Source: a virus
Taxonomy: Duplodnaviria > Heunggongvirae > Uroviricota > Caudoviricetes
Direction: 5' to 3' (one strand)
Virus record (IMG/VR): IMGVR_UViG_2917849834_000004
Length of the DNA: 48,246 nt
Part shown: positions 24,001 to 27,000 of the stretch, in pieces
Layout: each line of letters begins with the position of its first letter
Numbering within the stretch: position 1 is the first letter of the stretch
Position numbers: made by a program

Positions 24001-27000
24001 TTTTTACCCTGGGCAACCAGCATTGCGAATTTCGCCTGCTGGTCTGAAATACCGAATTCATCGGGACAGAACGAAATTTCTTCCGCATCGCCCTCATTCA
24101 GGCACGCATCGGATACTGGCTTTTTTTTCTGAGATTTTTCGTTCCGCTTTTGCGCAGTTTGCGCAGATTTTTTCTGCGCACTTTTTTGCGCAGTTTTGCG
24201 CACTTCTGCCTGCGCATTTTTCGGAGGTTTTTTTATGTAACGGCGGGCTGTTGCGTAATTCAGTCCCCTTGCTTCACACCATGCCGCCGGAGATATACCG
24301 GAGCGGGTGTATTCAGCAATATACTCCTGCTGCAACGCCCCCCAGTCCGGTCTGCTCATCAGTTAATCCTGATTTTTATCCACCCTGAGTAGTTCGCGCA
24401 GGGCAAAGGCATCCCCTTTTCTGGCAAGCTTAAACAATGCCGCCCGTAGCTCAGCTTCACCTTTCGCTCTGCCCTTACGGATGGACGCGTAAAAATTTGT
24501 CATTGCTTCCCGATTTTCTTTCAGTCGGTTCAGATCAACATCCAGCACGTCAGCGATTTGTTGTGCAGTCATCCGGCACGCTGCCAGAGACTCGACTTTC
24601 GAATACGGAATCATTTGTCACCCCCATTGATATGCAGGGTGTCTTCTTCCTGTATTTTTTATGAAGGATTTTTACTGCAGCGTTGTTCCAGGTGACCTGG
24701 TGGTGAATGCGTTTATGGCTGGCGCCCATCAGTGAGATTTTTACGCACGACGGTGCATACATGACGGAGTAAAAACTTTTAACGTAGGTTCCGGAATCCA
24801 GATACAGCTCGGTCATTCCACCACTGTTTTTCTGCGTCTGTTTCTGCCCTAACTGGACAGCACCGATCGTCATAAACAATTCACCACAGCGACCGAGATT
24901 CGTGTACGTATTCACATCCTCGTTAATGCGCCCCATGAATGAGAACGGTCGATCAACCGAACAGATAAAGCTGTTCATTGCCTTGCGTTTCACCCACGAA
25001 GCATGGCCGCCATTGTCACCAAGAAAATCCCCGCCCTGCGACATAGCGATGGAAAGCGCAGGTATTGATTCGTAGTACGCCAGCATTTCAGAAAGGATCG
25101 CATCCAGTTTCCTTATCGGAAAATAGGCCTGGTCATAGTTGCGATCCACCCGAAACTGGAACTCGTGATAATCATCATCGAGCTGAATGAAGTATTTACA
25201 CCCGACCAGTTTTGCCAGGTCGAAACAGGCATTACGGGCGTAAAAAATTGAGCGGCGGTCACCGAAATTATCGGCTTCGTCAAAACTACTGGCGATATCG
25301 GCTTTGGAAAACACCAGCACCTGTTCACCAAATTCAGCCATGTACTGATGCCGTGTCTTATCTTCATCATCAACAACGATAAAAATTTTCCCGGTATAGC
25401 CAGCACGACGCAACGTCCGGTAAGTCAGAACTTTGTCCGGTCGCCCGTGAGTCAGAATAAAGGCGCAAAAATCATCACGCATATTCCTCCTCCTCCCCAC
25501 CATGCATGATCTCCACCATGCGCTGCGTCATCCGGACAAATCCATTTTCAATAGCCTGCTGATAATCAATGATCACCAGCGCCGACTCCTCGAAAAAACA
25601 CTGAATTTCAGCGGGGGCGTGAGCGTAATAGTCCGCAATTCTGCTGAAATTAAACACCGTGTGACGTTCTGCCGCACACAGGAGGAATTTCTCAATATCA
25701 GGCTCAAGGGACGCCGAACGTATCCTGCTGATCAGCTCCTGAGTTTTCGTATCGTCGTACAGTTCACTGATATCCGGTTTACCGCCCGACGGCTCATAAA
25801 CAGGCGTATCAATTTTCGTCGTATACGGCTCCTCCTCATTTCCTGTACCGGGCAAAACATCCGTCAACAGTTCATCAATTTCTGTCGGGCTGAATCCTGT
25901 CAGGGAGATATCAAAATCAGCATTGATTAGGTCCGACAGCTCCATCCGTAACAGATCTTCATCCCACCCAGCATTCAGTGGCAGGCGATTATCTGCCAGA
26001 CGGTACGCCTTTTTCTGATCATCCGTCAGACCAGACAGAACGATGACCGGAACGGAATCCATTTTGAGCACTTCAGCCGCCATAACGCGACCGTGACCAG
26101 CAATAATTTCGCCCTTTTCATCAATCAGCACTGGATTAGTCCAGCCGAATTGCTTAATGCTTTCTACCAGTTGTGCCACCTGCTCAGGGCTGTGTATCCT
26201 GGCATTGTGTGCATACAGAGACAGTTCTTGTAACGGGCGATAGACGATCTTCAATTTCTCGCTCATACAGCCTCGCTTTATGAATAAAAAAGCCCGCTAT
26301 CGGCCAGTGCGCTGGGTGCGCGGCGGGTGCCGATGACGAGCTTTGGCATTATCGCAGCCCCTCACTATGAAGGGCTGCTGTAATGCTGATGTGCGGTAAC
26401 TTCATTAATATTTTCAATACAATATATTCACTTATGTTCGGCGCCACCAAGAATAATATTCACACCATCATCACTCTATAATCTAATAGAAATAAAAATG
26501 CCCCACTCTGGGGCAATAAAACAACAAAAACAACTTAATTATTCAGCATCTAATTCTATAGCCCATATATGATTCGGACTATATGCTTCGCTTGCGCATA
26601 AATTCACTTTCATATCTGAAAGTATAGCAGCCATTGCAATTTTCCTCATTTCATCAGCGACATAATTGTCCGGATAGTTTTGCGCCCCAGGAATAATCCA
26701 AACACCGCCAGTTGAACTGACGACATATATACCTTTCCTATTAACGTTCGCGTCAGCAAAATATTGAGTCAATTTTACTCCTTCTACAATTCTGGCTGTA
26801 GTTCTTTCACAGTTAGTTCTAAACTCCTGGCTAACACCTGCAAATGTTTGGATAGATACCAAACTTATCATAAAAACAAAAATTTTAATCAATGCCTTAA
26901 AGTTCATCTTTATCTCCATTCTTTACCAGAAAATCATCAATACTTTGCAAAGTCAACAAAGTGGATTTGCGTTTTATGAACTTCTTAAATTTTAATAAAT

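Follow-up and report, generated by a model that had tools for sequence, protein, structure and literature searches.

To our knowledge, pac sites have been defined experimentally in only a handful of phages and are generally not predictable from sequence. Several described packaging systems share features with the element considered here, an array of six palindromic TGCGCA hexamers within the small-terminase gene (terS) of IMG/VR virus record IMGVR_UViG_2917849834_000004 (48,246 bp; the whole stretch is referred to below as the window), a Rac-like lambdoid prophage. In SPP1, repeated short boxes and bent DNA are believed to be engaged by a TerS oligomer, as we propose for the window, and the SPP1/SF6 G1P protein and the window TerS belong to the same core family (Pfam: PF03592). 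However, G1P reads DNA via the helix–turn–helix (HTH) of Terminase_2 itself, whereas the window TerS has an extra preceding HTH similar to that of P1 PacA, which the repeated word tracks; moreover, SPP1 pacL lies upstream of gene 1, unlike the window array, which lies in linker-coding DNA. The cosB R-elements of lambda are several short copies read by the N-terminal HTH of gpNu1 and are located next to the terminase genes, again as proposed for the window, but lambda packages its DNA from cos and has fixed ends, and its elements are approximately 16 bp long, are located upstream of the gene, require integration host factor (IHF), and are read by a protein of another family. P22, a headful-packaging lambdoid phage, resembles the window in that its pac site is embedded in the small terminase gene; however, the P22 gp3 protein family differs from the window TerS, and the site is a single asymmetric sequence of approximately 22 bp (PMC11447400) and not a hexamer array.

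The pac site of phage P1 is experimentally defined, spans 161 bp, contains seven hexamers with Dam sites, and requires PacA, PacB, and IHF/HU (PMC10028697). When the hexamers are mutated synonymously, P1 packaging falls approximately 9-fold, and the hexamers are under the control of Dam methylation (PMC10028697). We predict that the six TGCGCA hexamers of the window are the TerS recognition element of a pac site built on the P1 plan, and we give this reading a probability of about three in four. The site is thus proposed from comparative data alone, in an E. coli prophage family that carries heat-labile enterotoxin type II (LT-II) genes. An earlier inspection of the window sequence (the original prediction) had suggested a P1-like pac organization, and this suggestion is now backed by homology to PacA, by the position of the array, by conservation at the DNA level, and by covariation of the repeated word with the HTH. 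Our literature search, which was incomplete, found no earlier account of arrays of the TGCGCA or PacA-like kind in lambdoid, Rac, or Shiga toxin (Stx) phages, or of repeated words that correspond to HTH subtypes; papers on TLS, Serratia, and Morganella and a review of terminases have no bearing on this family.

Organization of the array and of TerS

The window terS gene (23268–24359, minus strand) encodes a 363-amino acid protein with a Pfam Terminase_2 match over residues 122–311 (23427–23996, minus strand; PF03592, E 7.2e-9, 36.8 bits against a curated/gathering cut-off of 26.1) and a match to phrog_51 "terminase small subunit" (E 1e-69), which confirms that the array is located inside a terminase small-subunit gene. 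The stop of terS is overlapped by terL (21950–23278, minus strand), which encodes a 442-amino acid large terminase (Pfam: Terminase_6N; phrog_2, E 2e-35). The array occupies 24151–24216, corresponding to nucleotides 144–209 of terS, and the six hexamers previously reported are all exact matches (24151–24156, 24160–24165, 24175–24180, 24187–24192, 24197–24202, and 24211–24216), with center-to-center spacings in coding order of 14, 10, 12, 15, and 9 bp. TGCGCA is not over-represented in the window overall (17 copies, compared with 18.7 expected from shuffles), yet 6 of the 17 copies fall within these 66 bp; the Poisson probability of at least six copies per 66 bp is 2e-13, or approximately 1e-8 when all positions in the window are allowed for. 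The array encodes TerS residues 48–70, NAQAEVRKTAQKSAQKKSAQTAQ. The codon frame is xxT-GCG-CAx (Ala-Gln) in five of the six hexamers and GTG-CGC-AAA (Val-Arg-Lys) in the one at 24197. The T-richness of the spacers on the plus strand reflects an abundance of AAA lysine codons on the coding strand. The description of the array as encoding an AQK repeat is correct for the peptide, but peptide coding does not explain the conservation of the hexamers. An isolated seventh TGCGCA is located in the 3' part of terS (23366–23371, gene nucleotide 989) and is kept at nucleotide 980/989 in essentially all close relatives, which may just reflect conserved coding sequence. A candidate second cluster at gene nucleotides 331–345 (TTCGCA and TGCCCA, with an exact TGCGCA at 345 in some relatives) was rejected because the alanine codon at this point of the conserved Terminase_2 HTH changes freely among GCC, GCT, and GCG.

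Our comparisons suggest that TerS is composed of an N-terminal PacA-like HTH, a basic linker, and a Terminase_2 oligomerization core. The HTH domain comprises residues 1–45 (MSRPDWGALQ...GLNYATARRYIKK; 24225–24359, minus strand) and is supported by hhalign, BLASTP, PHROG, and AlphaFold2 (AF2) results. The linker comprises residues 46–98 (24066–24224, minus strand), is supported by the AF2 model and by polymorphism, and carries the array in the first half of its DNA. The AF2 monomer model was built from a shallow alignment and has a mean predicted local distance difference test (pLDDT) score of 48. Residues 1–45 form three short helices with pLDDT values of 72–80, residues 54–93 score below 50, and residues 100–160, which contain the Terminase_2 HTH, score 69–87; only residues 1–50 and 100–160 are modeled confidently, and most of the core scores below 50. 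Across the array-encoded residues 48–70 confidence drops from 68 to 36, and on the basis of this low confidence we propose that the basic connector to which these residues belong is probably flexible. The linker is also the most variable and the most length-polymorphic part of TerS, with relatives lacking 4, 5, 6, or 12 amino acids in unit-like steps. A sequence search of the PDB with TerS returned no significant match. The Terminase_2 core holds a CxxC...CxxCC insertion (C195, C198, C245, C248, and C249; CRYC...CPKCC; window 23600–23780) whose cysteines are invariant in the alignments and are kept down to relatives of 34–39% identity (L183–L186 and L191); this insertion looks like a zinc ribbon.

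The N-terminal domain is a homolog of the PacA N-terminus of P1 (VTWDDHKKNF...): it aligns with PacA residues 3–42 in a profile-sequence hhalign comparison (92.4% probability, E 5e-7) and gives a BLASTP match (E 0.001); residues 6–80 of the window TerS match phrog_1711, the PacA family (E 1.9e-5), and TerS and PacA both match phrog_370. In P1 pacA (L255, 4723–4881), four TGATCA hexamers are located at nucleotides 194–233 and three TGATC(A/G) hexamers at nucleotides 324–352, and the P1 record places an IHF site at pacA nucleotides 256–268 and the annotated pac cuts at nucleotides 276–285. Both the P1 site and the window array are thus inside the small-subunit gene, directly downstream of homologous HTH-coding segments: the window array starts 9 nucleotides past the HTH, which ends at nucleotide 135, and the P1 hexamers start approximately 70 nucleotides past an HTH that ends at about nucleotide 126. 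Both consist of several copies of a palindromic hexamer at similar spacing (7–15 bp in P1 and 9–15 bp in the window), and neither confines its hexamers to a single reading frame. The remainder of the proteins differs, with the window TerS continuing into a Terminase_2 core with a Cys-rich insertion and P1 PacA having its own C-terminal region instead. We therefore regard the window array as a putative variant of the P1-type pac site and do not assign it to the P1 pacase system in its entirety. Klebsiella-type terS genes (L247 and L196–L210) contain TGCGCA clusters of six and three copies (gene nucleotides 138–201 and 360–403), approximately 160 bp apart; this arrangement resembles the bipartite HEX4/HEX3 layout of P1, whereas the window has only the first cluster.

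Hexamer conservation and covariation with the HTH type

Four independent lines of evidence show that the TGCGCA hexamers are maintained as DNA and not as peptide. When codons were resampled given the peptide and local codon usage, 0.67 copies of TGCGCA were expected, and at least six copies were obtained in 0 of 20,000 resamplings (p < 5e-5). Across 13 representative genes of type A, which share the N-terminal domain, the hexamer is read in three frames, encoding x-Ala-Gln 48 times, Leu/Met/Val-Arg-x 11 times, and Cys-Ala twice; the residue preceding Ala-Gln varies (S, G, D, T, F, P, or N), but in all hexamers inspected at the DNA level the codon for this residue has T as its last base. The Serratia fonticola TerS (L086), which shares 53% protein identity with that of the window, is encoded by a gene with five hexamers, at nucleotides 144, 158, 168, 182, and 204, compared with 144, 158, 168, 180, 195, and 204 in the window. 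The four hexamers common to the two genes are identical at 24 of 24 nucleotides, against 44% identity in the rest of the array region and 53% identity at the third codon positions of the HTH. Four to six copies of TGCGCA are also kept in the Klebsiella-type genes, whose cores are approximately 40% identical to that of the window, in the L187 and L211 groups (29–34%), and in the Stx phage GER2, whose terminase core is unrelated to that of the window. A scan of genome contigs found four loci, including divergent ones in Serratia and Erwinia.

Polymorphism within the family points in the same direction. We compared 160 sequences from E. coli and Salmonella, which represent 40 distinct haplotypes. 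Among these haplotypes, 6 of 36 hexamer positions, 14 of 30 spacer positions, and 60 of 85 positions of linker DNA beyond the array segregate, as do 14 of 45 third positions and 9 of 90 first and second positions of the HTH. The contrast between the hexamers (6/36) and the remaining linker DNA (74/115) is significant (Fisher p 7e-7), and hexamer positions are 3–4 times less polymorphic than the neighboring linker DNA. In the terS gene of prophage Rac-SA53 the HTH is deleted, and three of the five remaining hexamer positions are mutated, although this is a single case.

Among relatives, the repeated word tracks the type of the TerS N-terminal HTH and not the terminase core. Genes encoding an ..ARRYIK.. 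HTH carry TGCGCA, and those encoding an ..AKRYIK.. HTH (from Yersinia, Klebsiella RothD, Providencia, Pasteurella, and L181) instead carry TGCGAA/TTCGCA in 2–9 copies, such that a single base of the word changes together with a single residue of the helix. The 933W/Min27 HTH type (TARTRIKM in Min27) is associated with GATCAT. Of the other subtypes, ..KALRYMAGKxGW is associated with GGGGCA, ..SHTAINNxARKEGW with GTTTCCAC, and ..SDTAVRKRAKAxxW with GGTTCGCA; these other subtypes are homologous to the N-terminal domain of the window TerS (hhalign 96%, E 2e-9). In some of them the words are asymmetric and form a direct run followed by an inverted run, as in L178, in which three copies of GGGGCA are followed by three copies of TGCCCC in different frames. 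We did not find such a repeat in TerS relatives that lack the N-terminal domain.

The cores of the window and of "Actinobacillus" phage pPE4 are 92% identical and their N-termini are unrelated, and the window has TGCGCA where pPE4 has GTTTCCAC; the pPE4 array consists of two copies of GTTTCCAC followed by two of GTGGAAA(C). GER2 and Min27 have cores that are 93% identical, helices that read TARRYIKL and TARTRIKM, respectively, and five copies of TGCGCA compared with four of (C/T)GATCATGAAAT, and L219 and L217 have cores that are 94% identical and carry GGTTCGCA and GTTTCCAC, respectively. Conversely, the window and GER2 have similar N-termini and the same TGCGCA word, and similarity between their cores is undetectable. 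A protein-level proxy applied to 150 cluster representatives gives a corresponding picture: ARRY-type tails contain on average 3.4 Ala-Gln and 0.1 Ala-Asn/Cys-Glu per 45 amino acids, compared with 0.4 and 2.2, respectively, in AKRY-type tails.

These observations are consistent with a mechanism in which a TerS oligomer would display a number of PacA-like HTH domains, each of them carried by a flexible basic linker and binding one hexamer. The hexamers, which are about one helical turn apart (9–15 bp) with A-tracts between them, would lie roughly on one face of the DNA. Such multivalent binding would mark phage concatemers and recruit TerL, the presumed nuclease/ATPase, which would then cut near the array and start a headful packaging series. 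By analogy with P1, packaging would proceed along the direction of terS transcription, toward terL and the head genes, that is, toward lower window coordinates. Because the proposed site is in the linker-coding DNA just past the HTH, reader and site would together form a compact cassette of approximately 210 bp that could be moved by recombination between terminase cores. We lean slightly toward the broader view that this arrangement is a widespread, swappable pac cassette, composed of a PacA-like HTH and 4–9 copies of a 6–8-bp word that could be read from the HTH subtype; under this view, the TARTRIKM HTH of Min27 and the HTH of P1 would both give GATCA-type words. If it holds, sequence could be used to predict the pac specificity of many Enterobacterales and Pasteurellaceae temperate phages, the toxin-converting LT-II and Stx phages among them, and the exchange of packaging specificity independently of the terminase core would be explained. 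The link between HTH and word, if correct, would furthermore provide a testable recognition code for the initiation of packaging, would allow prediction of pseudo-pac sites on chromosomes and plasmids for generalized transduction by toxin-converting phages, and would supply phagemid and transduction tools with orthogonal pac cassettes, a use to which P1 has already been put (PMC10028697).

Two further observations concern the HTH family. In terS of the Stx2 phage Min27 (L252), a PacA-like N-terminus is followed at approximately nucleotides 130–190 by the four copies of (C/T)GATCATGAAAT, which encode IDHEIDHKTDHEIDH, and this array contains GATC, as do the P1 pac hexamers. We take Min27 to be a 933W-like phage, and on that assumption the headful packaging indicated for 933W bears on Min27-type arrays. 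Phage 933W has been reported to be terminally redundant and to carry out generalized transduction (PMC3752737). By analogy with P1, Dam-gated pac cleavage may also occur in Stx-converting phages. Separately, some library proteins (P0143, P0204, P0228, P0230, and others) consist of 4–7 tandem domains that resemble the TerS/PacA N-terminal HTH (..W..L..E...SG.S...WC...GI....F..W..), which suggests that this HTH is part of a broader transposase-like class; PacA itself weakly matches HTH_23 and HTH_28.

Objections and competing explanations

Several of our results weigh against the prediction of a P1-plan pac site. The window word, TGCGCA, differs from the P1 word, TGATCA/G, and there is no GATC within the array, so Dam gating cannot apply. 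The window has one cluster of six hexamers, whereas P1 has clusters of four and three (HEX4 and HEX3) flanking the IHF site and the cut; beyond the window array, the next exact copy of TGCGCA is the one at gene nucleotide 989. A scan for the IHF consensus with 0–1 mismatch found no site in or near the 5' part of the window terS; the same scan recovers the P1 site and is also negative for Klebsiella L247. Since a second cluster, an IHF site, and GATC are all absent, the position of cleavage cannot be placed in the window. A BLASTP comparison of TerL with P1 PacB gave no significant match. The commonest E. coli haplotype retains only four hexamers, one of the others having been lost by a synonymous GCG>GCA change and one by TGC>TGT, and copy number differs by slippage among relatives; individual hexamers are thus dispensable, with constraint acting on the array and not on each copy. 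A motif-agnostic repeat test with synonymous resampling was only modestly significant (P 0.014), although this test is insensitive and gives P 0.13 for P1 itself; our conclusions draw on the motif-specific, cross-lineage, and polymorphism tests in its place. Finally, the HTH and the array are adjacent, and some co-inheritance is therefore expected through linkage alone.

The array could instead be a coding repeat, namely a low-complexity Ala-Gln-Lys linker expanded by slippage, with the hexamer a by-product of codon reuse and without function as DNA. This explanation accommodates the basic, low-confidence linker that the array encodes, the periods of 9–12 and 36 detected by Tandem Repeats Finder, the unit-sized deletions by which relatives differ in copy number, and the loss of single hexamers without obvious harm. 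We nevertheless consider it quite unlikely: a by-product of codon reuse would not be expected in three frames encoding unrelated peptides (AQ, [LMV]R, and CA), nor to hold its positions in Serratia across intervening DNA of 44% identity or to vary several-fold less than the linker DNA beside it, and the direct and inverted asymmetric words of other subtypes, such as those of L178, are impossible by slippage. A role of the array in methylation, as a sensing or decoy region connected with restriction-modification (TGCGCA being a palindrome that contains GCGC), has a precedent in the Dam regulation of the P1 hexamers and a possible connection to the TET-associated-family glycosyltransferase (TAGT) encoded upstream. 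We regard this role as very improbable, given that the ORFs (open reading frames) scanned in the window include no methyltransferase or TET domain, that sister arrays use non-palindromic words matching no known methylation motif, and that TGCGCA is neither depleted nor enriched elsewhere in the window.

Conservation at the DNA level is by itself silent about the process that is served, and the array might serve a process other than the initiation of packaging, for instance as an operator for late transcription or translation bound by TerS or by the HTH protein of an 83-amino acid ORF, or as a binding site of a ParB_N-domain protein. The latter two proteins are encoded just upstream of terS (24363–24614 and 25475–26266, respectively), the first of them being TerS-like. 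Neither has an annotated homolog in the approximately 1.2 kb upstream of terS in three array-bearing phages, Klebsiella phage ST846-OXA48phi9.2, GER2, and Min27, and we have set both aside as readers of the array; this is a weak exclusion, as the comparison covered annotated genes only, and the window ParB gene itself is approximately 1.1–1.9 kb upstream. The repeated word, moreover, follows the HTH type of TerS, and the homologous arrangement of PacA and hexamers in P1 is experimentally a pac site. We therefore judge a function in another process unlikely and favor the recognition of the array by TerS in packaging.

Prophage setting

The window prophage is in minus orientation and encodes an integrase, RecE/RecT, a lambda-P-like replication gene, a Q-like antiterminator, a holin, and an endolysin. 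The genes around terS are ordered LT-II A and B, ParB_N, TAGT, the 83-amino acid HTH ORF, terS, terL, portal, and baseplate/tail-fiber. The closest GenBank phages are Rac-like phages of E. coli and Salmonella, including the LT-IIa prophage Rac-SA53, and the 5' region of terS is found in 882 of 5,426 complete E. coli genomes. Phage pPE4 (L003; PP818812, "Actinobacillus phage vB_Apl-pPE4") has approximately 89% DNA identity to this packaging region and the same gene order, and the label of Actinobacillus pleuropneumoniae as its host looks doubtful.

Directly upstream of terS, the 83-amino acid ORF (minus strand) matches positions 145–218 of the 319 positions of phrog_309, another small-terminase family (E 2.5e-22) and shares 65 nucleotides at its 5' end with the glycosyltransferase ORF. 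Serratia L086 likewise carries this ORF ahead of terS; in Klebsiella L247, GER2, and Min27, the approximately 1.2 kb preceding terS contain no annotated counterpart. The glycosyltransferase gene (24550–25503, minus strand) encodes a member of the TET-associated family (phrog_842 "beta-glucosyl-HMC-alpha-glucosyltransferase", E 1e-103) and overlaps the ParB_N gene (minus strand). The ParB_N part of the product of that gene also matches the N-terminal end of phrog_498, annotated as DNA methyltransferase. These two overlapping genes upstream of terS could encode a DNA-modification pair. The LT-II A chain (26897–27664, minus strand; Pfam: Enterotoxin_a, E 5e-119) and B chain (26539–26919, minus strand; Pfam: LT-IIB, E 2e-58) are encoded between the lysis and packaging genes, as in published LT-II prophages (Rac-SA53 record; PMC3252337).

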